64,000 bases of DNA from the NCBI GenBank assembly GCA_000993405.1, contig LBWB01000004.1, positions 4,861 through 68,860 of the forward strand, read 5' to 3'. Numbering within the stretch: the first letter of the stretch is position 1; each line of letters begins with the position of its first letter. Of this stretch, positions 3,211-43,096 are shown piece by piece. Under the pieces are notes generated by a model that saw nothing but the letters and a program-made list of their open reading frames with translations, did not search any database and was not told the DNA's origin. The DNA is from Candidatus Woesebacteria bacterium GW2011_GWB1_39_12 (GTDB taxonomy: Bacteria; Patescibacteriota; Microgenomatia; UBA8517). The position numbers and the translations under genes are program-made.

Positions 3211-3228
3211 CGGTGTTATACTTTAGCC

Positions 3229-7264: not shown

Positions 7265-7265
7265 T

Positions 7266-18555: not shown

Positions 18556-19064
18556 AAAAAATTGGAAATTGGAAATTGGAAATTGGAAATTTGCCGCGAA
18601 GCGTGCGGGGGTTTACTCTGATGGAACTTTTGGTTGTAATGGCTATAATAGGGATCTTGTCAACGGTAATCATAGTTGGGGTGAACCCAGGGAGACAATT
18701 AGCAAAAGCAAGAGATACAGAAAGAAATACTGACCTCGTAGCCATACTTTCTTCGATCCTGCAGTATTCTCAGGAACATAGCGGTGATCTTCCTGATACG
18801 GATGGGGATCCGGATACGAGTAATTTTCCCACGTCAGCAACCTGTATTGGGACGGGAGTTGGTTGTTTTGATTTAGCCGGAGCCGGAGAGACAGGAGATG
18901 AAATCGTGCCTGTATATATGGTTACAATGCCGACTGATCCTAAATTTGCGGATGGAACCGATCCACAAGCCGACACCGGCTACACAATTTATGTTGATAC
19001 CAACGGCCGCCTTCACACTTCAGCAACAGGAGAAATCGATACCCCAATAACTGTGGATAGGTAG
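18552..19064 (+). CDS. pilA: Type IV pilin (PilA-like, candidate major pilin); start at MKKIGN with GGAGGT RBS
   Basis: MKKIGNWKLEIGNLPRSVRG-FTLMELLVVMAIIGILS class III signal; RBS ggaggt at 18539-18544. Confidence 0.8.
   Translation: MKKIGNWKLEIGNLPRSVRGFTLMELLVVMAIIGILSTVIIVGVNPGRQLAKARDTERNTDLVAILSSILQYSQEHSGDLPDTDGDPDTSNFPTSATCIGTGVGCFDLAGAGETGDEIVPVYMVTMPTDPKFADGTDPQADTGYTIYVDTNGRLHTSATGEIDTPITVDR
18562..18589 (+). repeat. (TTGGAAA)x4 heptanucleotide tandem repeat inside the pilin leader-peptide codons
   Basis: atgaaaaaa a ttggaaa ttggaaa ttggaaa ttggaaa tttgcc. Confidence 0.9.
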
Positions 19065-27653: not shown

Positions 27654-29000
27654 ATGAGTCTTTCAATAAAGATAGTAGAAAAACTCAAAGGTATTAAAAA
27701 ACCCGTCTTAGCAATCTATCCAGTCATCATAATCATTACCATTCCTTCGCTTTTGATAATTAATACTATTTGGAATCTAAAGTCGTTCAATAGAGATGCT
27801 AACTTTATTGTCAGGCATCAAGCCTTAAGTATTGCCGAGGTTCTGACCCCGATTATTAAAGAGAAAATTAGCTCTCCCAACGACTTGAAAAGGTTACTCA
27901 ACGAAGCAGATGCCTCTAATGAAGACGTAATCTCTGCAGCACTTTTAAAAGAGGAAGATGGAGATTTTAGTATTTATGTTTCGACAAGGGAAGATGATTC
28001 TCAGGAAGGTGAAATGGCAGCTTTAAATCAACTTGCAAAAGGATTTAACCAACCGATTGCTGGATTAACTTACGATCCTAATTTGCAGAAGGACGTTTGG
28101 AATGTAATTGTTCCTGTTGTTAATGAAGAAAATGGTAATTTTTTTCTAAAGATTGTTTTAGATACAAAGTCGGTTTCCGAAATACTGTCACGAACTACAA
28201 AAGATTCAGTCGTCATCTTAGTTCTTTTGGTCGTAGTAACCATAATCTTAATTGCTAATCACTTTGTTTTTTACCTAAGATCGTTAAAAACCAAGCAACT
28301 GGAAGAGCTCGACAGGCTCAAAGACGAGTTTATTTCAATTGCGGCTCATGAGTTGAGAGCGCCAATGACCGCCCTTATCGGCTATCTTGAACTTCTCAGG
28401 GGTAAAATTGCACCAAGCGAGGTAGAAAAAATAAAGCCAGATCTCGAGATTTTAAATTCTCTAATAGGCGATCTTGACGGTCTGATCAACGAACTCTTGG
28501 ATGTATCAAGAATCGAGCAGGGCAGATTTCAGGTAAATTTGGTTGATGTAAAGGTTGAAGAAGTTATCGAGAAGGTTGTAAACGTAATGTTACCGCAGGC
28601 CAGGCAAAAGGGATTAGATGTGGTTTTTGCAAAGGTTGACTTGCCTAGCATAAAAAGTGATCCTGATAGATTAAGACAGGTATTTACCAATATTATTAGT
28701 AATTCGATTAAATACACCTTGGAAGGAAGAGTGAATGTGAGTGCAAATTTGGAAGGAAAGTTTATTAAAATTGTTGTTAAGGATACCGGAATCGGCATAC
28801 CAGGAGAAGAATTAACAAAGCTTTTTTCCAAGTTTCATAGAGTCCAAGATAAAAAGACGATTGAAGTCAGGGGAACAGGTTTGGGGCTTTGGATTACAAA
28901 ACAAATTGTCGAAATTTTGGGAGGCAGAATTGGCGTCGAATCAATTTATGGAACCGGAACCAGCGTCATCATCACCCTTCCCGTCGGTAGTTCTTCGTAA
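27654..29000 (+). CDS. Membrane-anchored sensor histidine kinase
   Basis: Two TM helices flanking an extracytoplasmic domain; H-box SIAAHELRAPMTALIGY; G boxes DTGIGIP / GTGLGL. Confidence 0.8.
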   Translation: MSLSIKIVEKLKGIKKPVLAIYPVIIIITIPSLLIINTIWNLKSFNRDANFIVRHQALSIAEVLTPIIKEKISSPNDLKRLLNEADASNEDVISAALLKEEDGDFSIYVSTREDDSQEGEMAALNQLAKGFNQPIAGLTYDPNLQKDVWNVIVPVVNEENGNFFLKIVLDTKSVSEILSRTTKDSVVILVLLVVVTIILIANHFVFYLRSLKTKQLEELDRLKDEFISIAAHELRAPMTALIGYLELLRGKIAPSEVEKIKPDLEILNSLIGDLDGLINELLDVSRIEQGRFQVNLVDVKVEEVIEKVVNVMLPQARQKGLDVVFAKVDLPSIKSDPDRLRQVFTNIISNSIKYTLEGRVNVSANLEGKFIKIVVKDTGIGIPGEELTKLFSKFHRVQDKKTIEVRGTGLGLWITKQIVEILGGRIGVESIYGTGTSVIITLPVGSSS

Positions 29001-31376
29001 GTTATCTCCCTTTTTATTTTTAACGACCATTTTCAGAAAGTTTACTACCTGAATAACGATTACTATGATAAAGGCAAAGCCAACTGTCAAGACACCAAGG
29101 CGAATAAACTTGCCCCTTACTCCTTGGGAAACATCTTCCTGCTCAAGAAAAACTTGCTTACTTTCTTCAGCCGCAACGACCGTGAAATCAAAAACCGAGG
29201 ACCTGACCGATTTTCCGGATGAAGTTTTTACAGTTGCATAAGCTATATGCTTATCGCCTTCCAGAGGTTGATCAAGTTCATAAACCCAGTCGCCGTTTTC
29301 ATCGGTTTTTGTTGTAACAACAATTGGCTCTGAATAAATATATATATAAACGACTGAATTGGCTGGTCCGATACCGCTAAAGGTAAGCTTTCCACCAACA
29401 TCCTTTCCTTTTATTTCTTTAGCTTCCTCTTTGACTTCAGAAAGATTGATGGTGTTGGGATCTTCTTCTAAGAACGGAACTTCTTCCGGTGGGTGCGGCA
29501 GGAATTTAAGTTGATCGCTATTAAGTTTGGCAAAGCAAGATTCACCTTTAGCTTTCTCGTCATCCGAGGGATTTCCTTTTCCGGAGTTTATTTCATTAAA
29601 CCTTGATTCACCTATATTTTGTGTGAGACAGGTCTTGACTTCGTCCGGTATTTTATACACCCTGCCTTCTTCAAAAGCTTGTGGGTTAATACCAAAACAT
29701 CGGTTTACCTCTTCCCTTGCCTCATAAGGAACATCGGTTTGACCGGATTTAATCCTAGTGTAGTAACTTTTGAGAGTTTGTCGTAGGCAGGTGTCGGTTT
29801 CTTTTGGAAATTCGGCGTCGTTTGTGTAGTAAGTGAGGCTAGTTATCTTTCTTTCACCGTAACACCCTTCATACAAAAGATGTTCCTCATATGTTGGTTG
29901 TCTGACTCCGTAATAAATGTCTTTGTACGCTTTTTCTCCCAAGCTTTTAAGCAAACACCCTTCGTATTCAATGGGTGCTTTGGAGGTTTGACCTGTGGGC
30001 ATCGGACCTCCTTCTTTTGTTGTGGTATAACCCCAACAGGATTTAACTTTGTTTCCCAAATTCATAATTTCATTCTGTTCGTCATTGGTCGTGGGAATAA
30101 AGTAGCGAAGCCTGTCAAATTCGTACTGGTTCAATGCCGATTTAACGCAGCTTATCCTTTCTGATGATTCGTATGCTAGCCTGTCAAAATTCTCTTGCTG
30201 GTAATACGGATAGTAGGAGTTACAGGAACATGAGTAGGAATCCCAATAGGAATTAGTTCCACAACCCGAACTTGGGGCATAGCAGGGAGTGACGTTTGGA
30301 CTGGGTTTACACATACAACTTGCTGAATCCCAGTAATAGTTGTAGCCACAACCAGTGGAAGGTGAATAACAAGTCGTAGTTGTTCCCTGGTATGCTTTGC
30401 AAGAACAGTCGTAGTAATCCCAGTAATAATTATTTCCACAACCATTTGTTGGAGGACTACAAGATGTGGTTGAGGACTTACACGAGCACGAATAGGAATC
30501 CCAATAGTAATTGTAGCCACAGCCATATGACGGAGGATAGCAGGTAGAAGTTCCGCTTGTGTAAGATCTACAAGAACATGCTGAGTAATCCCAGTATTTG
30601 TCTGAGGCACAACCTTCGGTGGGAGGGTAGCAGGTAGTTGTTGTTTGATACGGCTTGCAGGAACAGTAGTACTGATCCCAATAGTAATTCGTGCCGCATC
30701 CGGATGATGGAGGACTGCAAGAAGAAGTTGTTCCTTCAGGACTGCAGGAGCATGAGGAAGAGTTCCAGTAATAGCCTGAGCCGCACCCTTGAGAAGGCGG
30801 ACTACAGCTTCCGAATGACTTGCAAGAACAGGATGCAGTATCCCAGTATTTTTCACTGCCGCAGCCGCTTGATGGTGGGTAGCAGGAAGACGTCGGTGTC
30901 GCATAATATTGGCAAGAACAGGAATTGTAATCCCAATAATAGTTAGCCGGACAGCCCGAGGAAGGAGAATTGCAGGTTGAAGTTGACGACTTACACATAC
31001 ATGCTGCCGAATCCCAGTAGTAATTTGTTCCACAGCCGCTTGATGGTGGGCTGCAAGAGGAAGTGGTTGAAGATTGTTTGCAGGAACAAGTCGATGAATC
31101 CCAGTAGTAGTTGTCCCCACATCCGCCTGATGGATAGGAACATGAGGATTGGCAGGTGCACGTGCTTGAGTTCCAATAATATCCGCTTCCGCAACCGCCG
31201 CTTGGTTCAGTACATCCCTCTGCAATCAATCCCTGGTAACCCAATGTGCTACCTTTTTCCCTACTTTTAAATGAACCGAATATTTGTAAGCCCGTTTGAA
31301 GAATGACTAAAGTCCCCAGAAAAGACGCAAAAAAGGTAAAAAGGAGTTTACCTCTCATTATTTTAAGTGTATACAC
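28941..31376 (-). CDS. Large secreted surface protein with 12 tandem 27-30 aa Cys-rich repeats, Ig-like region and C-terminal TM anchor
   Basis: Signal peptide; repeat unit C-x-PPS-x-GCG-x-NYYWD-xxx-C-x-CK with 4 Cys; C-terminal …GVLTVGFAFIIVIVIQVVNFLKMVVKNKK. Confidence 0.6.
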   Translation of the reverse strand: MYTLKIMRGKLLFTFFASFLGTLVILQTGLQIFGSFKSREKGSTLGYQGLIAEGCTEPSGGCGSGYYWNSSTCTCQSSCSYPSGGCGDNYYWDSSTCSCKQSSTTSSCSPPSSGCGTNYYWDSAACMCKSSTSTCNSPSSGCPANYYWDYNSCSCQYYATPTSSCYPPSSGCGSEKYWDTASCSCKSFGSCSPPSQGCGSGYYWNSSSCSCSPEGTTSSCSPPSSGCGTNYYWDQYYCSCKPYQTTTTCYPPTEGCASDKYWDYSACSCRSYTSGTSTCYPPSYGCGYNYYWDSYSCSCKSSTTSCSPPTNGCGNNYYWDYYDCSCKAYQGTTTTCYSPSTGCGYNYYWDSASCMCKPSPNVTPCYAPSSGCGTNSYWDSYSCSCNSYYPYYQQENFDRLAYESSERISCVKSALNQYEFDRLRYFIPTTNDEQNEIMNLGNKVKSCWGYTTTKEGGPMPTGQTSKAPIEYEGCLLKSLGEKAYKDIYYGVRQPTYEEHLLYEGCYGERKITSLTYYTNDAEFPKETDTCLRQTLKSYYTRIKSGQTDVPYEAREEVNRCFGINPQAFEEGRVYKIPDEVKTCLTQNIGESRFNEINSGKGNPSDDEKAKGESCFAKLNSDQLKFLPHPPEEVPFLEEDPNTINLSEVKEEAKEIKGKDVGGKLTFSGIGPANSVVYIYIYSEPIVVTTKTDENGDWVYELDQPLEGDKHIAYATVKTSSGKSVRSSVFDFTVVAAEESKQVFLEQEDVSQGVRGKFIRLGVLTVGFAFIIVIVIQVVNFLKMVVKNKKGDNLRRTTDGKGDDDAGSGSIN

Positions 31377-31441: not shown

Positions 31442-32971
31442 ATGCTCGCTAAAATTACTTCCGGGGCTACTATCGGATTAAATGCAACTTTGGTGGATGT
31501 CGAGGTGGATATTCCGGATGAAGGTTTACCTTCTTTTACAATAGTCGGACTTCCGGATAAAGCCGTGGAGGAAGCGAAAGAGAGAGTTCGCTCGGCAATT
31601 AAAAATACCGGAGCCGATTTCCCGACAACCAGAATTACGGTAAATCTTGCACCCGCCGATCTTCCAAAAGTCGGCCCCGCATATGACCTGCCAATTGCAT
31701 TAGGAATTTTGATCGCTTCAAGACAAATCGCGCCTGAAATTTCTGATTCGTTTTTCTTCGGAGAATTATCTTTGGACGGAAGTCTTCGGCATACAAACGG
31801 GATTCTGCCCATGGCCTATTTGGCTAGGGAAAAAAGACTAAAGAGAATATTTATTCCCAAAATTAATCAGAAGGAAGCGGCTGTTGTTCCGGGAATAAAG
31901 GTTTATCCCATAGAGAATCTTATCGAACTTTTGAGATTTTTTAGGGGTGTAGTAGAGATTGTTCCTGCTAAAAAAGTTCGTCTGGAAGGTCTTTTAAAAA
32001 CCTCTGAAGCAGAATTTGATTTTTCCGAAATTATCGGTCAGGAACATGCAAAGCGGGCAATGGAGATAGTAGCTGCCGGAAGCCATAATATTTACATGCG
32101 TGGAACACCGGGATCTGGAAAGACTATGTTGGCAAGGGCACTGCCGGGAATACTGCCGAGGTTAACCGCGGATGAGGCTTTAGAGGTGACTAAAATATAC
32201 TCAATAACCGGAAACTTATTTTCCGGTCAGGCAACAGTAAAAACTCGGCCCTTTAGAAGTCCGCACCATACAACTAGCCGGATTGGCCTGATTGGCGGCG
32301 GGAGTAATCCAACGCCGGGCGAAGTCTCGCTTGCCCACAGGGGAGTTTTATTTTTGGATGAGTTCCCCGAATTTCCCAGGCATGTTTTGGAGTCTATTCG
32401 CCAGCCTATGGAGGACGGGGTCGTGACCATATCTCGGGCAAAAGGTTCGGTTACCTATCCTGCACAATTTCTTTTAGTCAGCGCGAGTAATCCCTGTCCA
32501 TGCGGATATTACGGCGACCCGAAAAGAGCCTGTAAATGTCTTCCGGGAGCAATTATGAGATATCAAAAAAGAGTTTCGGGTCCAATTCTTGACAGGATTG
32601 ACATTCACGTTCATTTGCCGGCAGTAGAAACAGAAAAGCTGGTTGGAAATAAGGACAAAGCAGAAAGTTCTAAAAGTATTCAGGCTAGAGTTCAGAAGGC
32701 TAGGGATATGCAAATTAAACGCTTTAAGGGTTCTAAGTTCAAATCGAATAGTGAAATGAGTTCAAAAGCTGTTAAAGAATTCTGCAAGTTATCTCCTGAC
32801 TGCTATGCAATTTTGAGAAGTGCGGTTGCTTCAATGAATTTGACCGCTCGTTCTTACCACAAAGTAATAAAAGTCGCTAGAACAATAGCTGATTTGGAAG
32901 GAGCAAAGGATATAACCACAAATCATTTAGCTGAGGCTTTACAATACCGTCCTACTGAAGATGACTTGTAA
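31442..32971 (+). CDS. comM: ComM/YifB family Mg-chelatase-like AAA+ ATPase
   Basis: N-terminal Lon-like substrate domain, Walker A GTPGSGKT, Walker B VLFLDEF, C-terminal ChlI-type domain. Confidence 0.85.
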   Translation: MLAKITSGATIGLNATLVDVEVDIPDEGLPSFTIVGLPDKAVEEAKERVRSAIKNTGADFPTTRITVNLAPADLPKVGPAYDLPIALGILIASRQIAPEISDSFFFGELSLDGSLRHTNGILPMAYLAREKRLKRIFIPKINQKEAAVVPGIKVYPIENLIELLRFFRGVVEIVPAKKVRLEGLLKTSEAEFDFSEIIGQEHAKRAMEIVAAGSHNIYMRGTPGSGKTMLARALPGILPRLTADEALEVTKIYSITGNLFSGQATVKTRPFRSPHHTTSRIGLIGGGSNPTPGEVSLAHRGVLFLDEFPEFPRHVLESIRQPMEDGVVTISRAKGSVTYPAQFLLVSASNPCPCGYYGDPKRACKCLPGAIMRYQKRVSGPILDRIDIHVHLPAVETEKLVGNKDKAESSKSIQARVQKARDMQIKRFKGSKFKSNSEMSSKAVKEFCKLSPDCYAILRSAVASMNLTARSYHKVIKVARTIADLEGAKDITTNHLAEALQYRPTEDDL

Positions 32972-32981
32972 AGCCGAAGTC

Positions 32982-33038
32982 CTGAGTGGTGAGCGAATTA
33001 CAATCCTGAGCGCAGTCGAAGGAGTCGAACCATCGAAG
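32982..33038 (+). repeat. Left arm of a 57 bp inverted repeat; partner at 42353-42409
   Basis: ctgagtggtgagcgaattacaatcctgagcgcagtcgaaggagtcgaaccatcgaag equals the reverse complement of 42353-42409 at 56 of 57 positions. Confidence 0.9.
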
Positions 33039-33236
33039 GGCCGAGACACTCCAATATCGACTTCAAGAAGAAGACTTTTAATGTGCTGAATTCTTCTTTG
33101 ATTTGTGACACTTCTATCTTCTTTCTGCTGTCCAAACTTTGTTCCACCAGGAGCTAGGTTTTTGAATGTAAATTTCCATAGCTAGTTTTTTAGCTGATTT
33201 ACTAAAAAGTCTTTTCTCTTGTTCTCGTCCTTTTAA

Positions 33237-33710
33237 TCAAGCTGAAGCCTCATTATTACCTACCCATTCATATTCTCGGAGAAGAAGAATTTGATCAAGA
33301 AGATCTGCATCTTTTGCTAAATGAGCTTCCAAAGACTCTCTTTCATCGTACTCCCCCATAATTTTAGTCAACTCATCTCCAAATGGCTTATCTGCTAATT
33401 GATCTTTTTGTATATCTTCATCAAAAACTTTAAGGTATTTTTTATGTATCCAATTCTGATCACCACTTCTGGATTCTGAGAAATCATGGAAAAGACTCAT
33501 AAGAACGACTTTATACGGATCAGCTCTCTCTATTTTTGCTAGATACCACCCTATAATCGAAACTCGGAATGAATGCGAAGCAATGTTATCAGAAAGATCA
33601 TCAGTTAAAAGTATCTGCCTATGACTTCGAATCGTTTTTCTTAGGGATCCAGCTTCGAAAAACATAGCAATTACTCTCTCATGAGTTTTTTTATTATCTT
33701 TATAATTCAT
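33237..33710 (-). CDS. HD-domain hydrolase, YfbR-like 5'-deoxynucleotidase family
   Basis: H…HD…D metal-binding pattern (ASHSFRV…LFHDFSESRSGD). Confidence 0.6.
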   Translation of the reverse strand: MNYKDNKKTHERVIAMFFEAGSLRKTIRSHRQILLTDDLSDNIASHSFRVSIIGWYLAKIERADPYKVVLMSLFHDFSESRSGDQNWIHKKYLKVFDEDIQKDQLADKPFGDELTKIMGEYDERESLEAHLAKDADLLDQILLLREYEWVGNNEASA

Positions 33711-33821
33711 AATTTCAAGGTATTATACAACAGTTCCATCAGGCGCAAAAGTTACCCGCATTTTGGTGTTAAACTCGATTTTTGATATTCAAAATGCTAA
33801 TATCAGCTTCACATTGAACAA

Positions 33822-35408
33822 ATGAGCAATATTCTCTCAACGATATTCTGGTTATTAATTATTGCGATTTGCATACGATCATTGTCTAATTTCTTTAATT
33901 TACTCTCAAATTTGAAGTGGGTTGCAAATAAAAATGTCAGTTATAAGAAAAAAAGCACTCGGGCAACCGATGAAGAGTTTATTATTTGTATTCCAATGCT
34001 ACGGGAGCAGCGTGTAGTTTCTGAAACATTGAAGTACTTTAGTCAGTTGAACTACCCGAAAGATAAATACCATATTGTCGTTGTAACTACAAACAAAGAA
34101 ATCGCAGAAAAGACCCGAATGTCAAGGTTTCTAAGTGAACTAGCAGGAGATGTTTCGCAAGGAAAAGCTCTAAAAACAATTCAAGATAGATACTCAGGTC
34201 TATTTCCATTTGATCAACTGAGAAGGGTATATGAGAAATATCGATTAGAAAGCTATACGGTTGTATTTAAAAAAGTAAAGAGTATATATAAACAACTACC
34301 AACAACATTCAATTTAGCCATTAAGGAGGCGGAAATTATAAATGCTCATTTTAAATCAAAATTAATAACTGTTATGAATTATCCACGCAGCCAAGGTGTG
34401 ATGAGCCATCAAATAAACTATGTTATCAAAAAGCTTGCAAAATATAAGCAGAGTACAAATTCCATTTTTGCGGTGTATAACGCTGACTCTCGTCCCAATC
34501 CGAATACTCTAAGAAATGTCGCTTATGCTTTAAAAGAATTTGAAGAAGAAACCGGCATCAAACCAAATATAGTACAGCAGTCGTCCTTGTTTACATTGAA
34601 TTACAGTAAGTACTCCAAAACTTTTACTGGTTATTCTCTCAAGGCGGCGGCGTTGTTTCAAACAAAGTGGACTTTAGTACGAGAATTGACCCGTTTTCGC
34701 TCACAATCGCGCAGTGTTATTACCTATAAGGATAATTTCATTTCAAAATTATTTAATACTAAAATTTCTCACTGTGTAGGGCATGGATTGTTCGTACGAT
34801 TTGGAATCTTAAAAAACGAATACCTTCCTACTGAAACTATTAACGAGGACTTGCCGTTTGGATTTTACCAATGCTGTAAAGGTGAACCTATTCTACCATT
34901 GCCTATTTTGGAAAATTCTGAAACTCCCGATACATTAAAGGGTCTGATGAATCAAAAACGTTTTTGGTTTACTCCATACTTACAATATCAATATTGTAGA
35001 GATAGGGTATTACAGCTCAAGAAATATCGCTCAAGGTTAGAGGTTGAAATACTTACTATTCAAGCCGAACTTACTGGTTTTATCTGGTTTTTGCAATCGT
35101 TTGTGTTGTTTATGCCCTTAATTATAGGTTTGTATCTACATAGTTTATCTATGATTGCGCTATGGAGTATTGGGCTACTTATTTACTGGTTTGTACCAAT
35201 TGGGTTAATTTACACAAATCTGAACAAATTAGAAGATATCGCTGGAAAATCAGTATCTAAAACCGACTTTAAAGATTATATCCTAACGTCATTTTTTGGA
35301 CTTTATATTTTGTTGACTCACTCCATCGGGCCGATTCTGTGTGTGAGAGATTTTGCTTTAGCAAAATTTATTGATAAGCCGATTACTAAATTAAAAACAG
35401 AAAGATGA
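33822..35408 (+). CDS. Membrane-bound glycosyltransferase family 2-like protein
   Basis: N-terminal TM, GT-A-like core, four C-terminal TM helices. Confidence 0.4.
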   Translation: MSNILSTIFWLLIIAICIRSLSNFFNLLSNLKWVANKNVSYKKKSTRATDEEFIICIPMLREQRVVSETLKYFSQLNYPKDKYHIVVVTTNKEIAEKTRMSRFLSELAGDVSQGKALKTIQDRYSGLFPFDQLRRVYEKYRLESYTVVFKKVKSIYKQLPTTFNLAIKEAEIINAHFKSKLITVMNYPRSQGVMSHQINYVIKKLAKYKQSTNSIFAVYNADSRPNPNTLRNVAYALKEFEEETGIKPNIVQQSSLFTLNYSKYSKTFTGYSLKAAALFQTKWTLVRELTRFRSQSRSVITYKDNFISKLFNTKISHCVGHGLFVRFGILKNEYLPTETINEDLPFGFYQCCKGEPILPLPILENSETPDTLKGLMNQKRFWFTPYLQYQYCRDRVLQLKKYRSRLEVEILTIQAELTGFIWFLQSFVLFMPLIIGLYLHSLSMIALWSIGLLIYWFVPIGLIYTNLNKLEDIAGKSVSKTDFKDYILTSFFGLYILLTHSIGPILCVRDFALAKFIDKPITKLKTER

Positions 35409-36082
35409 CAGAGAGTGAACTTAAAATTGGTGCTGTTGAAGGGAATTCCTTTAGTGGCAAAACTACTTTAGTAAAAGAGCTTGAAGCTGAATATGGGTTA
35501 TCTGTTGTCTGGGAACCAAGCGCTTATCTCAGTAAGTTCCCTAGTTTTCCACCCGAAACATATGCAGAGGCAAAAAAAGCTATCGATATTTTTGTAGATG
35601 TAGAAAAAAGAAGATCCACAGATGCTATCGAACTCGCTCAAAAAAATGGTATTGTTGTTATGGATCGTTCCCTGTGGACATATTCTGCTTTTCAATATGT
35701 TGTGATGAAAAGAATGCCCAATATCCCCAACTCGTATTTATATAGTCTCGATATTCTGCAAAGACACATTGATAATAAAGAAATCGTTGTGCCTGGCGCA
35801 GTTGTAAGCCTTATACCTAAAAACCAAGAAGAATTTGAAAGAAGAGTAAGAGAAAGAGGAAGAGTAGGAATAGGATTCTTAAACGATTGGGGAACAACCG
35901 TCTTGATAGAACAATTGTATGGGATTGTAATCAATTGTGTTTATGCAAAAAACAATGGGAGAAGTGTTATCACTTCAGATAACGTAAAAGAGTTAGCAGC
36001 TGAAACGAGCCAATTTTTACAACAATCAGACTGTTTTGTCGATGCAATTTTAGCCTTTGATCAACTCCGTATCTTAAAATAA
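35405..36082 (+). CDS. Deoxynucleoside kinase family protein (dNK/dCK/dGK-like P-loop kinase)
   Basis: P-loop GNSFSGKTT, DRS motif (VMDRSLWTYSAF), Arg-rich lid FERRVRERGR. Confidence 0.55.
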   Translation: MTESELKIGAVEGNSFSGKTTLVKELEAEYGLSVVWEPSAYLSKFPSFPPETYAEAKKAIDIFVDVEKRRSTDAIELAQKNGIVVMDRSLWTYSAFQYVVMKRMPNIPNSYLYSLDILQRHIDNKEIVVPGAVVSLIPKNQEEFERRVRERGRVGIGFLNDWGTTVLIEQLYGIVINCVYAKNNGRSVITSDNVKELAAETSQFLQQSDCFVDAILAFDQLRILK

Positions 36083-36090
36083 ATACAAGT

Positions 36091-37305
36091 ATGCATATTG
36101 GCTTTTTAACCTCAGAATATCCTTTGAATAACACCAAAACTGGAGGTTTGGGTACATATATCAGAAAAACTGCGCTAGAGCTCAATAAAAGAGGTCAAAA
36201 AGTATCAATATTTTGGGAATCAATACGTAATGCTAAATCGAACGATAGAGGAATCGTTGTTTATGAAATAAAATGTCCCCCACTTTATTATGCTCTCAAT
36301 TCACAGTCTTTGATAAAACAACTTATAAGAGTTAGTTACGTTTTGTATTCTGCTTTCAAAATAAGAAATAAAGTGTTTCAGGTTCACAAAGAAACGCCGT
36401 TAGAGATAATCCAAGCACCTAACCATCTTGCCCCAGGCTATTTTATCAAACAGAATAATAAAATTCCGGTGGTTGCTCGTGTATCAAGTTATGCACCTTT
36501 ATATCATGCTGCTTTTGGTGTCCCTCGCACGTTTGGCGATTATCTGATTGACTATTTAGAACTCAGACAGGTTACGGGTGCTAAAGCAGGCTTTTCTCCT
36601 AGCCATTTTATGCAAAAGGTATATTCACGATACGAAAATTGCAATTTAGATTTTGTGCCTACTGCAGTCGAGGTTAGAAAACCTGAAAAAACAGACAATT
36701 CTGTATTAAAAAAGATACTGAGGCAATTTCCCTCAAAACAATACCTTCTTTACTTTGGAAGCATGAGTCGCATAAAAGGCGTTGATCTTATGGCAGATGT
36801 GATAAATAAGCTCGCACCAAAGTATCCAAGATTGTGTTTTGTTTTTATAGGTGTAGATTATGGTCTACCAAGTGGAGAACCAATTTCTAGCTTCATTTTT
36901 AAAAACTGTGATAAATATAAAGAAAGGATTATATTTCTACCATTCAAACAGCACTGGACTCTTTATCCCGTGATTAAACGTTCGTTAGTAGTGGTAGCTC
37001 CATCGAGAGTTGATAATTATCCTAATGCTTGTATTGAAGCACAATCTTTGGGTATACCAGTGATAGGAACCACAGATTCTAGTATCGATGAGATTATAGT
37101 AGATGGTAAAACGGGATTTATAGCTGAAAATTCATCAGCTATAAGTCTTGTCTCAAAAATAGAAAAATTAATTAATATGAATAAAAAAGAAAGAGTTGAA
37201 ATGAGAAAAAATATAGAGAAAAATATGATTGCCATATTTGCAGAGGATAGAATAAAATTATTAATAAAATATTATGAAAAGGTTATTCAGAAAAACAAAG
37301 AGTGA
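36091..37305 (+). CDS. Glycosyltransferase family 4 (GT-B, glycos_transf_1)
   Basis: C-terminal GT-B half with EAQSLGIPVIGT…DGKTGF signature. Confidence 0.7.
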   Translation: MHIGFLTSEYPLNNTKTGGLGTYIRKTALELNKRGQKVSIFWESIRNAKSNDRGIVVYEIKCPPLYYALNSQSLIKQLIRVSYVLYSAFKIRNKVFQVHKETPLEIIQAPNHLAPGYFIKQNNKIPVVARVSSYAPLYHAAFGVPRTFGDYLIDYLELRQVTGAKAGFSPSHFMQKVYSRYENCNLDFVPTAVEVRKPEKTDNSVLKKILRQFPSKQYLLYFGSMSRIKGVDLMADVINKLAPKYPRLCFVFIGVDYGLPSGEPISSFIFKNCDKYKERIIFLPFKQHWTLYPVIKRSLVVVAPSRVDNYPNACIEAQSLGIPVIGTTDSSIDEIIVDGKTGFIAENSSAISLVSKIEKLINMNKKERVEMRKNIEKNMIAIFAEDRIKLLIKYYEKVIQKNKE

Positions 37306-37951
37306 AACTAAAAAGCTACAGGCAGTATTAATAGATTGGAATGGTACTCTTTCCCCGACCAACTACTGGTCACAGTTAGAAAAGTCTGAAAAACAAAGTG
37401 AGCGCGATCTATTTAAAATTTGGTCGTATTCAATGTTTGTCAAACATAAAGATAAAATTATTCCTTGGATGAAGGGAGAGTATGTAAGCGAGGACCTTCT
37501 TTCTTTGGTTTCAAAAGAAACAAATACAGACTTCGAATTTCTTTTAAAAGAGTTTGTTATAGGCTGTGAGCGCATGGAATATTCTTCTCCAAACATACCT
37601 AAGCTGGTTCAAGACTTGAGAGATAAATCGATTATTGTTGGTATCGCTACAAATAATATGGACTCTTTTACAAGGTGGACCATCCCTTATATGAAACTTG
37701 ATACGCTTTTTAATGAGATACTAAATTCATTTTATCTCAAAGCAATGAAACATGATTTAGACAAAAACGGTCAATCTTTATTCTTTGGAAATTTTTTCAA
37801 TAAATATGATATAGAACCTACAAAATGTATTTTTATCGATGACGGCGAAGACAAGATGGGGGTAATTAACAAACTCGGTATGAATTATAGAAGAGTCAAT
37901 GCTTTCAATACCCTCGAACAAGAACTGCGAAATATTTTAAAGACTCTCTAA
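37274..37951 (+). CDS. HAD-like hydrolase, atypical motif I (DWNGTL)
   Basis: Motif II GIATNN and motif IV IFIDDGEDK present. Confidence 0.4.
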   Translation: MKRLFRKTKSETKKLQAVLIDWNGTLSPTNYWSQLEKSEKQSERDLFKIWSYSMFVKHKDKIIPWMKGEYVSEDLLSLVSKETNTDFEFLLKEFVIGCERMEYSSPNIPKLVQDLRDKSIIVGIATNNMDSFTRWTIPYMKLDTLFNEILNSFYLKAMKHDLDKNGQSLFFGNFFNKYDIEPTKCIFIDDGEDKMGVINKLGMNYRRVNAFNTLEQELRNILKTL

Positions 37952-38235
37952 GTCTTATGTAGTTGAGACCCCTTCCATGATTTGCTTGTGGGCAAAGGTA
38001 AAAACTCCTTCGGTTTTACTTTAAGAGTCCGAGTAATTTTGTTAATAGTTTAAGTTGGAGAATTAAATACGATTATAGTTTGGTTTGAAAAGGAAACTGA
38101 TTAGCACATGTCATTGCGTTTGTTGGAAACCGATAGAAAACCACATTTTTCAGTCTTAAGTCGAAGTGTGACATCTGTAAATTGGTTGGAAACAAAGAAA
38201 AAGAAGAAAATTCAAAAGAAATTTTAACAGATCAT

Positions 38236-38280
38236 AGCAGAGACACTTCAGTATAGACCTTCGAGTGAAGAGGAATTTTA
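38236..38280 (+). repeat. 45 bp direct repeat copy 1, just upstream of the CYTH-like gene
   Basis: agcagagacacttcagtatagaccttcgagtgaagaggaatttta; 40 of 45 identical to 40356-40400. Confidence 0.85.
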
Positions 38281-38321
38281 GTTACTTCGCATAAAATCTA
38301 TTTTTAGCGATATAATCAAAC

Positions 38322-38894
38322 ATGATTGAAATTGAAATAAGAGGAAAGCTGAACAGGAAGGAATTTGGTAAATTAAAGTCCTTTTTGGATAGAAAGGCGA
38401 AACAAAAAGATTGTTATAAAAGAATATCTGTTGATATTTCTCCTGGTTTTGATCCAATAACTAGGACTTGGAAAAATTCAAGCTTCGATTTAAGGCTTAA
38501 AAAATCTGGTACCACCGAAAAGATTAGTTTAAAAGTTGGGAAATTTCACCTTAAAGAGCGAGAAGAAATTGAAGTAAAACTGAAGGAAGGGCAATTTTTA
38601 GATGCATTAAAAATGTTTGAAACGTTAGGTTTTGATAAAGGAATGATTTACTTTTGGGAGAGTTGGGAATATGAATATCAAGGTTTTGAAGTTAAAATCT
38701 CAAAATATACAAATGACTATTATATATGGGAAATTGAATCCGATAATCCTAAAAAAGATCCTCACGATTTAGCAAATACCCTCTCCCTCAAACCATACTC
38801 TGAAGAAGAATATAGGAAAGCTATAGATTGGGAAAATCAAAACATACATAAGCTGTACTCACTCGAATTAGTAAAAGAATTATTAAGGAAATGA
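38322..38894 (+). CDS. CYTH-like (triphosphate tunnel metalloenzyme/CyaB-like) protein
   Basis: N-terminal MIEIEIRGKL ExE motif and alternating charged beta-strand pattern. Confidence 0.4.
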   Translation: MIEIEIRGKLNRKEFGKLKSFLDRKAKQKDCYKRISVDISPGFDPITRTWKNSSFDLRLKKSGTTEKISLKVGKFHLKEREEIEVKLKEGQFLDALKMFETLGFDKGMIYFWESWEYEYQGFEVKISKYTNDYYIWEIESDNPKKDPHDLANTLSLKPYSEEEYRKAIDWENQNIHKLYSLELVKELLRK

Positions 38895-39301
38895 ATAAAC
38901 ATCAAAAAGTAGCAGTAATTGTTTGGACGATAGATCCGGAAGGAATTAAAAGATTTCTTTTAAGACATAATAAACCTTTTAATGGCTACGATGATGAGTG
39001 GACAGTTATTTTTGGAGACATTGAGGTTGGCGAGAGCTTAGAAGATGCTGCAAAAAGAGAGGCTTCCGAAGAGTTTCGAATAAGTAACTTTGAACAAATT
39101 AATGATCTAAATTATACGACTGAGTTTGAAGGAAAACATGGTTTGACTGAAGTCCATTTTGTTGCATTAAAAGTATTAGATATTAATACCCAGATAGTTT
39201 TAAACGAGGAAAGTATCGGTTATGACTGGATGCTTATCGACCAAGTTAAAGGGGTTATGAAAAATGATGATGAAAAACAAGCCTTTGATTTAATAAAATG
39301 A
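38891..39301 (+). CDS. NUDIX hydrolase
   Basis: Nudix box GDIEVGESLEDAAKREASEEFRI. Confidence 0.7.
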   Translation: MNKHQKVAVIVWTIDPEGIKRFLLRHNKPFNGYDDEWTVIFGDIEVGESLEDAAKREASEEFRISNFEQINDLNYTTEFEGKHGLTEVHFVALKVLDINTQIVLNEESIGYDWMLIDQVKGVMKNDDEKQAFDLIK

Positions 39302-39867
39302 AAATTTTATATTTTGCAACATCAAATTCCTGGAAATTTAATCTGATGAAAAGGTTTTTTGATAAAGGAGAAATTGATCTAAAACAGTATGACATTGATA
39401 TGCCGGAATCAAGAAGCGAAGAAGGTGAAGAAATTGCTAAAGAGAAAGCAGAATTTGCATTCTCAAAATTAAGAAAGCCTTTATTTGTGCTAGACGGATC
39501 ATTCCAAATCCGAGCTTTGAATAATTTCCCTAAATCTTATGTTAAGTTTACCGACAGGTACATTGGTGCTGAAGGAATACTAAAGTTAATGGAAGGGAAG
39601 AAAGACAGGTATTGGGAGTTTTTAAATATCCTTTGTTATAAAGATAGCGAATTTGAAAATCTTTTTACCGGCACTCAAAGAGGTCAAATTGTTCAAAAAT
39701 TAACTCACAGTAAGAAGGGGCAAATAAGAGACTTTGATCGAGTATTAGTTCCTGAAGGATATAATAAAACATTTGCAGAGTTTACTAAGAAGGAAATTAA
39801 GGAATATGACGACAAGGTCTGGCCAGAAGTTGTCGTCAAGTTTATAGATTGGTATAAACATAAATGA
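39298..39867 (+). CDS. Ham1/RdgB-like non-canonical purine NTP pyrophosphatase (ITPase family)
   Basis: N-terminal ILYFATSNSWKF (ATxNxxK) and VLDGSFQIRALNNFPKSYVKF (DDSGLxVDALNGxPGxYSAR-like). Confidence 0.5.
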   Translation: MKILYFATSNSWKFNLMKRFFDKGEIDLKQYDIDMPESRSEEGEEIAKEKAEFAFSKLRKPLFVLDGSFQIRALNNFPKSYVKFTDRYIGAEGILKLMEGKKDRYWEFLNILCYKDSEFENLFTGTQRGQIVQKLTHSKKGQIRDFDRVLVPEGYNKTFAEFTKKEIKEYDDKVWPEVVVKFIDWYKHK

Positions 39868-39868
39868 A

Positions 39869-40330
39869 ATGAAGGTGGAAAACAAAATCAATGTTCGGGT
39901 GAGATTGGTGATAATTCATGACAGGAAAGTTCTTGTTCAATACAGACAAAAGGGTGATTTCTATCATTACATTGGTGGACATTTGGAATACGGAGAAACA
40001 GTAAAAGCTGCTTGCACAAGAGAAACTAAAGAAGAGTGTGGAGATCAGGTTAATTTTGATCTCCAGAAAATTCTTTATATCCGCGACTTTATTATTCCTG
40101 ATGAAAATGAACATAGTCTAGAATTATTCATATTAGGAAGTATTGATAAAACCGATAATTTAGAAGGATTAAGAGATCCGGAACACTCAGATGGATCAGT
40201 CTGGTTAACTTGGCTTGATATTGACAACTTGCCGGACAACCTATTACCAAAATCTTTATCTCCAAAATTGTTGAAAGATTTTAACAGTGGATTTCCAAAA
40301 GAAGGAGAATATATTGGAGAAATAGAATAA
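39869..40330 (+). CDS. NUDIX hydrolase
   Basis: Nudix box GGHLEYGETVKAACTRETKEECG. Confidence 0.75.
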   Translation: MKVENKINVRVRLVIIHDRKVLVQYRQKGDFYHYIGGHLEYGETVKAACTRETKEECGDQVNFDLQKILYIRDFIIPDENEHSLELFILGSIDKTDNLEGLRDPEHSDGSVWLTWLDIDNLPDNLLPKSLSPKLLKDFNSGFPKEGEYIGEIE

Positions 40331-40355
40331 ATGAAACTTTAAATTCATATAACAA

Positions 40356-40400
40356 AGCTGAGGCATTTCAATATAGACCTTCAAGTGAAGAGGAATTTTA
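40356..40400 (+). repeat. 45 bp direct repeat copy 2
   Basis: agctgaggcatttcaatatagaccttcaagtgaagaggaatttta. Confidence 0.85.
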
Positions 40401-40424
40401 ATAAACCTGTGATATAGTCAGTGT

Positions 40425-40634
40425 ATGGGCTTCATAGAGAAAATCTGGCGGTTTTTTGCAGAATATTTTGTTTTTGTGGGGGGATTTTTGTTTATTTTTG
40501 CGATTGGTGCTCTTTATGCTTATTTAAGACCTCAGGGAGTTCTTTTTAACGTCATTTTTTTGATAATTACCATAGGTTGGATAGTCTTTCTGATCAGATA
40601 TTTTTGGGATTTGTTGGAAAAGAAAAAGCCTTGA
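40425..40634 (+). CDS. Small 2-TM membrane protein
   Basis: ORF with two hydrophobic helices. Confidence 0.3.
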   Translation: MGFIEKIWRFFAEYFVFVGGFLFIFAIGALYAYLRPQGVLFNVIFLIITIGWIVFLIRYFWDLLEKKKP

Positions 40635-40644
40635 TACATGAAGT

Positions 40645-41076
40645 ATGAGATTAGTAGTTCAAAGAGTGAAGACGGCTTCAGTCAAAGTTAAGAAAAATGT
40701 TGTAGGCAAGATTGACGTAGGGCTATTTGTGCTTGTTGGGGTGGGTAAGGATGATAGCGAGAAAGATGCGCAAATTCTAGCAGAAAAACTTGTAAAACTG
40801 CGTATAATGGCAGACAGTCAAGAAAAGATGAATCTTTCTGTAAAAGACGTTGGGGGGAAGGTGCTGGCTGTTTCCCAGTTTACTTTGTACGCAGATACTA
40901 CCGGTGGTAATAGGCCTTCTTTTATAAAAGCAGCCGAGCCCGATAAAGCGGAGAAAATTTATAACCGCTTTATCGAAAGCTTAAAAGAGTTTGGAGTAGA
41001 CGTGGAAACAGGAAGGTTTGGTGAATATATGGAGATTGAAGCAAGACTTGATGGGCCGGTAACGATAATTATCTGA
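40645..41076 (+). CDS. dtd: D-aminoacyl-tRNA deacylase
   Basis: MRLVVQRV…SQFTLYADT…GNRPSF Dtd signature. Confidence 0.8.
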   Translation: MRLVVQRVKTASVKVKKNVVGKIDVGLFVLVGVGKDDSEKDAQILAEKLVKLRIMADSQEKMNLSVKDVGGKVLAVSQFTLYADTTGGNRPSFIKAAEPDKAEKIYNRFIESLKEFGVDVETGRFGEYMEIEARLDGPVTIII

Positions 41077-41087
41077 GGAAAAATTAT

Positions 41088-41717
41088 ATGGGAATTAGAT
41101 TTTCATTAAAAATCGTTTTGAAAACCTTTCTTACGGTATTTGCTTTTGTTTTGTTTTTTGCATCCCTTTTTGGGGTCTATTTTTTGGGAATGGTTAATGG
41201 TTATAAAATGGCTCAAAGGGAAACGGAGGCAGATATATCAAGTTTCCTGGAAGATTTTATCAAAAGGCAGAGCCTGAATAGAGTTAGTCCGACTCCCACA
41301 GTAGCACCTACTAAAAGTCCTCCGAAGGCGGTGAGTCCACAAGTTTCTTGGGGCGGGCCTGAATTATGGGCGGCCGTGAACAAAAGAAGGACTGAGTTGG
41401 GAGTAAACCCTCTTTCCCAGAAAGATGAACTTTGCACAATTGCCTCGATTCGATTAAATGAACTATTAGATTTAGGAAAATTGGACGGGCATGTTGGGTT
41501 CAGTAATTTGGAGGAAAGGCGAGCCGACTTGAAATGGATTTTTGATAAGTACTCAAACATGGCAGAATTTTTGGCGGTCGGCGGGAAAACTCCCGAAGAA
41601 ACAGTAAGTTTATGGGAGAATACTTTAGGACATAAAAAACTTTTAACCGGTGGAGAATATGTTTGGGGTTGCATTTACGCCCAAAACACTTTTGCGGTTG
41701 CCATTACTGCATTTTAA
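41088..41717 (+). CDS. CAP/SCP/PR-1 family domain protein, membrane anchored
   Basis: N-terminal TM, Pro-rich linker, CAP core (…LNELLDLGKLDGHVGF…YVWGC…). Confidence 0.5.
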   Translation: MGIRFSLKIVLKTFLTVFAFVLFFASLFGVYFLGMVNGYKMAQRETEADISSFLEDFIKRQSLNRVSPTPTVAPTKSPPKAVSPQVSWGGPELWAAVNKRRTELGVNPLSQKDELCTIASIRLNELLDLGKLDGHVGFSNLEERRADLKWIFDKYSNMAEFLAVGGKTPEETVSLWENTLGHKKLLTGGEYVWGCIYAQNTFAVAITAF

Positions 41718-42339
41718 AATCTAGACTTTCTTTTCTTAAAAATTCCTCGAGCCTTTTTTTGGTTGTGTATTGACGGCCGATGGATACAAAGAGTCTGTTA
41801 ATTTCGCTCCAATATTTTTTGGGAAGGATTTTGACAAGTTCTTTTTCCGTTTGTTCGGGAGTTTTTGTTTTTACCCAACCAAGCATGTTAGAAATTCTGT
41901 GAACATGAGTATCAACCGCTATTGCAGGAATTCCAAAAGCACGGTTTAAGACTAAATTTGCAGTTTTTCTTCCAACCCCGGGGAGACTCATTAATTCTTC
42001 ACGGGTTTCCGGAATTTCACCTCTAAATGCCTCTAAAATCCTATATGCAAGCATCTTTAGATGCTTTGCTTTAGTTTTATAAAATCCTACTGGATATATT
42101 AAACCTTGAATTGATCTAATTTCTAATTGACCTAATTGCTCTAAATTTTTTGCTTTAGAAAAAAGTCTTTTGGATGCTTTGAGAGTTACTTCATCTTTAG
42201 TTCTCGAAGATAGAACTGTTGATATGAGGGTTTTATAAGGATCATCTTTGAATAGTTCCAAGGGAACTTGATTGTAATGTTTACGGAAAGTTTTGAAGAC
42301 CTTTTCGAAGTTATAATTTGTCATTTGAAGTATTTTCAA
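41704..42339 (-). CDS. nth: HhH-GPD family DNA glycosylase (endonuclease III-like) lacking the C-terminal Fe-S motif
   Basis: HhH-GPD with LPGVGRKTANLVL and catalytic …AVDTHV…; no CX6CX2CX5C. Confidence 0.65.
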   Translation of the reverse strand: MKILQMTNYNFEKVFKTFRKHYNQVPLELFKDDPYKTLISTVLSSRTKDEVTLKASKRLFSKAKNLEQLGQLEIRSIQGLIYPVGFYKTKAKHLKMLAYRILEAFRGEIPETREELMSLPGVGRKTANLVLNRAFGIPAIAVDTHVHRISNMLGWVKTKTPEQTEKELVKILPKKYWSEINRLFVSIGRQYTTKKRLEEFLRKESLDFKMQ

Positions 42340-42352
42340 ACCAAGAGAAACT

Positions 42353-42409
42353 CTTCGATGGTTCGACTCCTTCGACTGCTCTCAGGATTGTAATTCGCTC
42401 ACCACTCAG
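42353..42409 (-). repeat. Right arm of the 57 bp inverted repeat
   Basis: Reverse complement is gagcactctgagtggtgagcgaattacaatcctgagagcagtcgaaggagtcgaaccatcgaag. Confidence 0.9.
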
Positions 42410-42445
42410 AGTGCTCTTGGAATATATTTCAAGAAGGACTAGATC

Positions 42446-42583
42446 TTAGGCATTACCCAAAATCTTGAACATCTTAGTTCCGCAAACTTCACAGACAGCT
42501 CTCATTGCTTTCTTTCCATTCTTCATGGTTACGGTTTCTTGATTTTTTCCTTCTCTTTTTGTTCTACATTTTACGCAGTACAT
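42446..42583 (-). CDS. 45 aa zinc-ribbon protein (DUF5679-like), below the ORF-track size cutoff
   Basis: Manual translation MYCVKCRTKREGKNQETVTMKNGKKAMRAVCEVCGTKMFKILGNA with a CxxC…CxxC pattern. Confidence 0.45.
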   Translation of the reverse strand: MYCVKCRTKREGKNQETVTMKNGKKAMRAVCEVCGTKMFKILGNA

Positions 42584-42620
42584 TAAGCTTCACCCCCTTC
42601 CTTAGGACAGGTATTTTAAT

Positions 42621-42899
42621 TTACCATAGTAAGTATAGCACCACTTCTGAAGCTAGAATGATTACTGCTAATATCAGGCTTTTTGTGATATCTTTCTTAA
42701 TCGAAGCTAAATTTACGATTTGATCCGAGTAATCGGAATGTTTTGTTTTTAAGTCATCCCCTTTTTTTGTTTTTTTGTTAGTTTCTATTTGCCTCTTGAC
42801 ACTAGGTTCAGAATCAGTTTTTTTAGCCTCAGGTTTCCAGCTTATCGTGAATGTGTGTTTCGCTTCTTGTTTTTGTTTCCTTGTACGTCTTTTGGCCAT
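42621..42899 (-). CDS. Hypothetical basic protein with C-terminal TM anchor
   Basis: ORF only; Lys-rich N-terminus. Confidence 0.25.
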   Translation of the reverse strand: MAKRRTRKQKQEAKHTFTISWKPEAKKTDSEPSVKRQIETNKKTKKGDDLKTKHSDYSDQIVNLASIKKDITKSLILAVIILASEVVLYLLW

Positions 42900-43096
42900 T
42901 TTGGATATTATAATACACCCTCCTTGACCCCAGCACTACACTTCCTTGCTCCCGAGGTTTACGTCCTCGCATCGCAGGGCGTGAGTGCGGGGTCTGCGCC
43001 ACAACAAATTCATATGGTTGTGGCTTGACAGCTAGTGCTCCAGATGCAAAAATGTTTGAGTCATTTATTTACCCAAGGTAATTTATTGCTGGAAGT

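Follow-up and report, generated by a model that had tools for sequence, protein, structure and literature searches.

A 57-nucleotide inverted pair beside comM and nth in a Candidatus Woesebacteria genome and its likeness to a nested hairpin repeat

The locus

The DNA analysed here is a stretch of 64,000 nucleotides (nt), hereafter the window, from contig LBWB01000004.1 (positions 4,861 to 68,860) of Candidatus Woesebacteria bacterium GW2011_GWB1_39_12. It carries the same 57-nt sequence twice in inverted orientation, once just after the gene comM and once between nth and a gene for a DUF5679 zinc-ribbon protein. The original prediction, made from the letters of the window, was that these two arms bracket a 9.3-kb segment, which could be invertible, could be the footprint of an island, or could be flanked by a pair of conserved cis elements. 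The features on which the argument rests are the following.

32982..33038, plus strand: left arm, a 57-nt compound hairpin element (sequence reading, repeat search).
42353..42409, minus strand: right arm, a copy of the left-arm element, 56/57 identical (sequence reading, repeat search).
31442..32971, plus strand: comM, an Mg-chelatase-like AAA+ gene whose 3' end is an insertion hot spot (domain scan, locus comparison).
41704-42324/42339, minus strand: nth (gene scan).
42446-42583, minus strand: DUF5679 zinc-ribbon gene (conserved neighbour in relatives).

The repeat search confirms the predicted pair: the arms are reverse complements of 57 nt, with 56 of 57 identities (98% complementary), separated by 9314 nt. 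Chance is an improbable source of it, as had been supposed, since none of 100 dinucleotide shuffles contains a match to the 57-mer. The single difference lies at arm position 30, with a C at 33011 on the left and, in arm orientation, an A at 42380 on the right. Both arms are sharp-edged, identity ending abruptly at each side, and the sub-repeats GTCGAAGG / GTCGAACC described within each of them are present.

The predicted positions just 3' of comM and just 5' of the nth-like gene are also correct. The left arm starts 10 nt past the comM stop codon. The right arm is in the spacer that separates two minus-strand genes, after the stop of DUF5679 (42446) and before the start of nth (42324/42339). 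The polarity of the element relative to its upstream gene is identical at the two sites; the arms are mutually inverted because comM and DUF5679 sit on opposite strands.

Further copies of the 57-mer had been suggested as a check. Exactly two are found in the window with up to three mismatches allowed, and there is no third one in about 104 kb of this genome (the window and a further 40 kb) nor any in 80 comM loci. An arm-specific 20-mer has no match in the genome-contig collection, and in metagenome contigs it matches the right arm itself and, once, GC-rich coding DNA, apparently by chance. The same 20-mer and a 23-mer are absent from the viral contigs of IMG/VR. The peptides of the open frames in the arms share words with one candidate only in 5.8 billion protein clusters, and none scores.

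Nested anatomy of the arms

The 57-mer parses exactly into three small hairpin units, each nested within the next. The building block is N-CCT-GAGCGAAGTCGA-AGG-N'; its stem has 4 bp (N-CCT/AGG-N' or N-GGT/ACC-N') and encloses a loop of 12 nt, GAGCGAAGTCGA. In these terms the left arm reads CTGAG/T/GGT/GAGCGAA/TTACAA/TCCT/GAGCGCAGTCGA/AGGA/GTCGA/ACC/A/TCGAAG, and its inner and middle units are placed as follows.

33004..33023, plus strand: inner, intact unit of the left arm, TCCT-GAGCGCAGTCGA-AGGA, 1 nt off the family 18-mer CCTGAGCGAAGTCGAAGG.
42368-42387, minus strand: inner unit of the right arm, the counterpart of the former (parse).
32987..33032, plus strand: middle unit, T-GGT-GAGCGAA, then a 26-nt insert, then GTCGA-ACC-A (parse and occurrence in IMG/VR).

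With the variation between the arms included, the inner unit is TCCT-GAG(C/A)GCAGTCGA-AGGA, so that the centre of each arm is the family 18-mer with one to two mismatches. Deletion of the 26-nt insert turns the middle unit into GGTGAGCGAAGTCGAACC, which has the consensus loop and two flipped (compensatory) stem pairs. This sequence was predicted from the parse first and was then found intact in 23 IMG/VR stretches; the bases one position beyond it on either side are paired (T..A or C..G) in 23 of 24 IMG/VR instances. The outer unit is (C/T)CTGAG...TCGAAG(G/A), and its closing pair, which lies just beyond the 57-nt identity, differs in a compensatory manner (C-G on the left, T-A on the right). 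The nested parse is adopted because deletion of the insert restores a unit which exists intact elsewhere, and because the outer closing pair co-varies. Four of the 101 IMG/VR members are themselves nested with the outer break of the arms, compared to none in a swapped control.

The hairpin family beyond this locus

The 18-mer CCTGAGCGAAGTCGAAGG occurs exactly in 101 IMG/VR stretches of 24-74% GC, and a reversed control of equal composition in none. The bases that flank it pair in 94 of 99 distinct contexts (C-G in 43, T-A in 35), compared to a mean of 63 and a maximum of 73 in shuffles. Given this flank pairing and the constancy of the loop, the unit is a hairpin in which a stem of 4 bp closes an invariant loop of 12 nt, GAGCGAAGTCGA. 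Five further matches with at most two mismatches are found in 1.46 Mb of comM loci (about 0.06 are expected), in Patescibacteria and in Chloroflexi (Herpetosiphon). An inverted partner lies within 60 nt of 25 of the 101 IMG/VR members; the copies in the window are nested instead.

In this genome the density is about 3 copies per 100 kb, with two compound members and one simple member in about 104 kb. The simple one is found about 6.2 kb past the right end of the window. The simple member GTCCTGAGCGTAGTCGAAGGAC at L205 16567-16592 (18-mer at 16571-16588) is inside a gene of 406 amino acids, which runs on the opposite strand and translates it in frame to ..SPSTTLRT.., and a related motif within the dtd gene of the relative L100 encodes ..LRQAQD... 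These two cases suggest that hairpins of the family can sit inside coding regions without breaking the frame.

A widespread, REP-like occurrence of the 57-mer (REP, repetitive extragenic palindromes) had been named beforehand as an observation that would speak against a switching or mobile segment. The 57-mer as a whole does not have such a distribution; its building block, a REP-like hairpin, is by contrast very widespread.

Rfam 15 has no match to either arm at E values up to 10, and none at the gathering score on 11 IMG/VR loci which carry the motif. Literature searches by the sequence of the repeat and by its encoded peptides returned nothing relevant. It is conceivable, although we hold it as a tentative idea more doubtful than not, that the hairpin represents an undescribed cross-phylum family of minimal elements, which insert into each other's loops and, in frame, into genes. 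If this were true, some activity common to very different bacteria and viruses would mobilise or recognise the conserved 12-nt loop on single-stranded DNA or RNA, and the 57-mers of the window would be a recently copied compound member of the family. If truly undescribed, the hairpin would also lend itself to study as a candidate new minimal element, mobile or recognised by a protein.

An RNase P RNA of class A is present at 6901-7265 of the window (plus strand; 76 bits, E=2e-23). It is missed by the default Rfam scan because its score is below the gathering score of 100. It has an extra 44-nt hairpin at 7186-7230 (CCTTCGGCAAGCTCAGG-atta-CCCTGAGTGAAATTGAAGG), which resembles an inverted doublet of the hairpin family.

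The two sites of the element

The right arm is enclosed by a short stem, which is conserved in a related genome (L101).

42341..42347, minus strand: half of a lower stem (CCAAGAG / CTCTTGG, 7 bp) enclosing the right arm (fold, L101 comparison).
42414..42420, minus strand: partner half of this stem (fold, L101 comparison).

The DUF5679-nth spacer of L101 reads CCAAGAG-taac-CCTGAGCGAAGTCGAAGG-gttt-CTCTTGG followed by TTTT, and that of the window reads CCAAGAG-cact-[57-mer]-agttt-CTCTTGG, so that the two have the lower stem in common. Both fold into one long hairpin, with a free energy of -18.8 kcal/mol (z -4.2) for L101 and -25.6 kcal/mol (z -2.2) for the window. The comparison with the L101 spacer shows the older state of the right site, namely a simple member of the family, already there in an ancestor. 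Since a simple member was in place, the identical 57 nt most likely come from copying into an existing hairpin. The copying could have occurred either by insertion into the loop of the hairpin or by gene conversion over a short tract.

The history of the left site is less legible. In L007, the closest relative according to GTDB (its comM is 90% identical), the spacer at this site shares GTCCTG... and ...TCGGAGGG with the arm at the two edges. This is no more than a hint that the left site had an earlier, simple hairpin. A partly ancestral left arm was considered on the basis of a plausible-looking alignment with this spacer and was rejected, as explained below.

Origin and possible role of the pair

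The reading which we regard as probable is that the arms are two copies of a discrete, REP-like compound hairpin element located after two genes. One copy follows comM, and the other would have been placed at the apex of a terminator-like hairpin that is older and separates nth from DUF5679. The bracketing of the intervening genes would then be incidental, and the 9.3 kb do not form a unit. The elements would act, if at all, locally, as DNA or RNA hairpins at the ends of genes. A 9-kb invertible or mobile segment in the reduced genome of a member of the candidate phyla radiation (CPR) would have been notable; given the evidence for an incidental pair of small hairpin repeats, this claim should be dropped. 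The cis-element option of the original prediction comes closest of its three: one hairpin element is present twice, and its right copy is an extension of the hairpin found at the site in L101.

Several observations weigh against two copies of a REP-like element. Only two copies of the 57-mer are seen in the approximately 104 kb of genome, so that a dispersed multi-copy family is not shown at the level of the 57-mer. No mobilising enzyme is identified: neither a RAYT nor another relative of the IS200 transposase TnpA is found in the window or the extra 40 kb by tblastn, a search of low sensitivity made with an approximate TnpA query. Folded by itself, the 57-mer is no more stable than its shuffles (z +0.27), and there is no enclosing stem around the left arm. 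The likeness of the arm to the L007 spacer is reached by 261 of 2000 shuffles and is not significant. Neither arm is a canonical intrinsic terminator, a T-run follows only 8 of 102 IMG/VR members, and the orientation of the family relative to open reading frames (ORFs) is random, although the latter result comes from rough ORF calling and intragenic counts are unreliable in GC-rich contigs. Finally, the short-read assemblies used to establish orientation (see below) show the majority form, and rare inversions would escape them.

Because there is no canonical terminator, T-runs are few and orientation is random, a role at the RNA level, as terminator or as stabiliser, is unproven; the random orientation and the scarcity of T-runs point to a property that is exerted on DNA or does not depend on orientation. 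For the right copy, with its stem and the short T-run downstream, a local role as a hairpin at the 3' end is plausible; for the left one it is unsupported.

A stronger version of the cis-element idea is that the arms form a selected regulatory pair (a shared operator, an attenuator or an mRNA 3'-end element) which co-regulates comM and the DUF5679-nth genes, and that function maintains their identity. Indeed, both arms are just after a stop codon with equal polarity to the upstream gene, the right copy extends a conserved hairpin with a short T-run after it, and both copies are unchanged in the metagenomic locus L088, even if a divergence of about 1% predicts little change there. However, the 57-mer is missing at both sites in every other relative that was compared (L007, L097, L099, L100 and L101), the family has no preferred orientation relative to genes, and the left copy has no stable fold. 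We know of no regulator for such a pair. Selection for co-regulation is thus unlikely, and two copies of a hairpin element that came to lie after two genes remain the preferred reading.

Orientation of the segment in the population

The region was compared across samples. Exact-protein look-ups covered 12 contig records for comM and 24 for nth (up to 36 in total), from which 14 loci were fetched, and a pattern scan of metagenomes added a further locus (L006), which makes 15 loci from 13 samples (ENA, JGI, Logan). Every one of them that reaches an arm has the junctions comM-arm-R0 and DUF5679-arm-nth (R0 is a relic of comM described below), and the arm-specific base is constant, C on the left and A on the right. 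The contigs with inverted orientation that the original prediction had proposed to look for are absent: no alternative junction is found in any fetched contig. Because of the C/A difference, the two stretches of unbroken identity are only 29 and 27 nt long, and assemblies at k=31 are therefore unambiguous through the arms, so that an abundant inverted form should have given its own contigs.

These data bear on the proposal that the arms serve as substrates for RecA-mediated or site-specific inversion of the 9.3 kb. Such an event would swap the DNA downstream of comM and of DUF5679 and could, for example, place nth under read-through from comM. The inverted repeat is long and nearly perfect, and the genome encodes both RecA and RecX (L203). 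With 29 and 27 nt, the unbroken identities come close to the minimal length that is usually given for pairing by RecA. Against inversion, no alternative junction is seen, the C and the A never swap arms, relatives devoid of the repeat share the gene orientation, and the comM relics inside the segment are direct relative to comM. The GC skew within the segment is positive, as in the flanks, no gene for an invertase or integrase lies in or beside the segment, and no promoter-like site lies beside either arm. A switching segment is therefore very unlikely, even if a rare RecA inversion between the arms, of whose occurrence or importance there is no sign, is possible.

Two irregularities were noticed among the fetched loci. 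In one assembly (L095, 355-364, compared to 42499-42583 of the window) a deletion of 85 nt beside the right arm removes most of the DUF5679 gene. In another (L094, 1-2501, compared to about 45063 of the window) the DUF3048 gene is joined to a ribosomal-protein/SecY cluster instead of the 194-amino-acid gene and SecDF; this junction is either a strain rearrangement or a chimeric assembly.

Genes between the arms

The 13 genes ascribed to the bracket are present and their labels are broadly right. Two of these are weak: CYTH (TIGR00318, E=3.5e-6, below cutoff) and CAP (E=0.0036, below cutoff). A Pfam scan of the 13 genes and of the immediate neighbours on both sides reveals no recombinase or transposase domain, in agreement with the statement that no transposase or integrase is inside or adjacent. 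The distal third of the bracket and its right neighbours are shared with relatives.

40425..42339, nth on the minus strand: conserved core in the bracket, consisting of a small transmembrane ORF, dtd, a CAP-like gene and nth (gene order in relatives).
42446..42899, minus strand: DUF5679 gene and a 92-amino-acid ORF, upstream of the right arm and on the same strand as nth (conserved in relatives).

The closest homologues of nth are 72-82% identical and carry Woesebacteria names. The contexts of three of them (L097, L100 and L101) give a common layout: comM, variable DNA, dtd, the CAP-like gene and an optional rhomboid gene, then nth, DUF5679 and a small ORF in reverse, then DUF4446, DUF3048 and SecDF. 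In L100 comM directly abuts dtd, and in L097 and L101 3.4-4.6 kb of unrelated genes separate the two. The order and orientation of comM, dtd, nth and DUF5679 in these related Woesebacteria are as in the window, and the 57-mer is absent. From this conserved layout, 40404-42339 is core genome in its ancestral orientation. The 9.3 kb between the arms is thus not one unit but a variable island and a conserved core. The comparison of synteny from comM to the zinc-ribbon gene, which had been proposed as a means to find an absent or inverted segment, shows no inversion, and the variable part ends before dtd.

A further possibility is that the arms are the terminal inverted repeats of a 9.4-kb non-autonomous transposon or of a composite island that moves as a unit. 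The inverted terminal sequences have sharp outer edges and the interior is low in GC. In addition, L088 (ERZ27254728, k141_139883) is 99% identical to the window over the whole region, and its right flank is only 83% identical. However, no direct repeat is found outside the arms in any register (the flanks are ..CCGAAGTC[arm] and [arm]AGTGCTCT.., or ..GAAGTC and AGTGCT.. next to the arms), which means that there is no target-site duplication. There is no transposase domain, and the arms are non-coding, 57 nt long and not copies of an insertion sequence. The distal third (dtd, CAP-like, nth) is in place in relatives without the repeat, the low-GC part stops at the relic R2 at about 40.4 kb, and the right arm replaces a simple hairpin within a conserved lower stem. 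The 99% tract of L088 itself spans 32057 to about 42901 rather than running from arm to arm. A transposon bounded by the arms is therefore extremely unlikely.

The L088 locus deserves a description of its own. It is 99% identical to the window over 32057-42901 (10.8 kb), then 83% and then 73% further to the right, which suggests that the block may have been exchanged whole, and recently, between diverged lineages.

The insertion hot spot at the end of comM

The variable island occupies 33040-40401. Three relics of the comM C-terminus divide it into modules, all direct relative to comM.

33040..33081, plus strand: relic R0, AETLQYRLQEEDF and a stop, directly after the left arm (a degenerate counterpart is at the same place in L007).
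38234..38281, plus strand: relic R1, IAETLQYRPSSEEEF and a stop, at the end of module A (HD, GT2, dNK-like, GT4, HAD).
40357..40401, plus strand: relic R2, AEAFQYRPSSEEEF and a stop, at the end of module B (CYTH-like, Nudix, Ham1, Nudix) and of the variable island.
Elsewhere: comM C-terminus relics (AE[AT][LF]QYRP..) at L007 2330-2375 and 10263-10358, L019 12762-13160 and L041 near 10848.

The GC content is 0.31-0.36 over 33-41 kb only, compared to about 0.39 for the window. The difference in composition that was looked for between the segment and its flanks thus exists in this part and does not reach the right arm. Similarly, the idea of an island footprint survives for a variable, low-GC island downstream of comM, whose boundary is at a comM relic at about 40.4 kb and not at the right arm. 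The island proteins are of nucleotide-housekeeping types (HD 5'-nucleotidase-like, dNK-like, HAD, two Nudix, Ham1 and CYTH-like), with two glycosyltransferases. A known defence system was considered and dismissed, PADLOC giving weak Nudix matches only.

The cargo at this site differs among relatives. L007 has nothing in common with the window downstream of comM, and homology with it stops at 32984, within the first bases of the left arm. The signature of comM relics is nevertheless found downstream of comM in L007 (two relics), L019 and L041, and a regular expression for the C-terminal motif has one likely chance match in 1.37 Mb. No integrase is found in any module of the window, L007, L019 or L041. 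All relics end in ..EE[E/D]F before the stop, like R0, and the working comM genes end differently (..DDL, ..DEL). This suggests that an old R0-type relic, rather than the end of comM itself, may be the recombining site. In Woesebacteria-like genomes, and also in those of some Chloroflexi, the comM end is a hot spot at which integrase-less modules accumulate, each closed by a comM relic. It offers a defined place for studying gene gain in CPR genomes.

In L088, comM is interrupted at the junction that corresponds to 32057 of the window (about residue 205). Upstream of it the frame runs into an unrelated ORF whose tail is weakly similar to the C-terminal part of the phage integrase phrog_95 (E=0.0011); the likely explanation is a large serine recombinase element inserted into comM. 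Contig LBWA01000003.1 (L204), from a metagenome-assembled genome at NCBI, is 99.8-100% identical to the first 12.8 kb of the window. Compared to L203, it has an insertion of 3.4 kb (100-3516), about 6-10 kb upstream of the window, with a 522-amino-acid Resolvase-domain protein, four small ORFs and an overlap of 7 nt at the junctions. The insertion is thus an element with a serine recombinase, present in only part of this population.

Comparison with known systems

REP and REPIN sequences are repetitive extragenic palindromes mobilised by RAYT transposases (PMC3116915, PMC3337134). The hairpin family resembles them in several respects: its members are short, imperfect hairpin palindromes of about 20 nt, apparently mostly intergenic, often just past stop codons and non-coding. 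They occur as singlets and perhaps as inverted doublets (about one quarter of the IMG/VR members have an inverted partner at 60 nt or less), and the hairpin is backed by compensatory change (94 of 99 flank pairs, and the GGT/ACC stem variant with the same loop in 23 stretches). REP families, however, are lineage-specific, with hundreds of copies beside a single RAYT gene. In contrast, the 12-nt loop spans Patescibacteria, Chloroflexi (Herpetosiphon) and viral contigs of 24-74% GC, there are about 3 copies per 100 kb in this genome, and units are nested in loops rather than side by side. By the hairpin criterion we file the arms as REP/REPIN-like; they fail lineage specificity and are a variant, not a member, of REP/REPIN.

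Genomic islands inserted at the 3' ends of genes keep the displaced gene end as a direct repeat, the targets being tRNA, tmRNA and protein genes such as dusA (PMC4482086). The island at 33040-40401, as distinct from the arms, is similar in its direct comM C-terminus relics after each module, its varied cargo, its lower GC, its tandem arrays at one site and the recurrence of the signature in L007, L019 and L041. It differs in that the modules of these loci and of the window have no integrase, and in that the relics are R0-like rather than like the working end of comM.

Invertible switches (Hin, Gin, Fim) and shufflons have in common with the locus a segment flanked by inverted repeats, here of 57 nt with 56 identities. 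Unlike in these systems, there is no recombinase and a single orientation is seen. The repeats also exceed typical crossover sites in length, and the borders have neither a promoter nor an alternative gene end.

Rickettsia palindromic elements are 100-150 bp long, are restricted to Rickettsia and insert in frame into genes, as do other small palindromic repeats of a similar kind. The family is comparable in that members lie within coding regions with the frame kept (the 406-amino-acid gene of L205 and, with a related motif, dtd of L100), but its hairpin units are about 20 nt long and span phyla.

Other identities were tried for the arms and rejected. The minus-strand sequence GGTTCGACTCC resembles a T-arm and brought to mind the 3' fragment of a tRNA or tmRNA, as a target of an integrase; ARAGORN and Rfam are negative at both arms, and the idea was also dropped because the nested hairpins explain the sequence better. 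The core boxes of hammerhead, k-turn and integron attC do not fit (by eye, on consensus features), nor is there an Rfam match. The att sites of large serine recombinases were discarded too: the L088 junction at 32057 is unlike the arms, and integration does not yield identical inverted att sites.

Other repeats in the window

Directly upstream of comM is an ORF of 811 amino acids (28941-31376, minus strand) in which degenerate units of 81-90 nt (families D1-D4) are repeated in tandem, about 10 in all. The ORF has a weak Big_13 match only and is split differently by gene callers across assemblies.

A second inverted pair is present at 14566-14652 and 18549-18635 (87 nt, 80%, 3.9 kb apart). Perfect (AATTTCC)n arrays underlie the pair, at 14610-14643 and 18559-18591, and similar AT-rich repeats are found at 1389-1499, 3095-3157 and 16051-16119.

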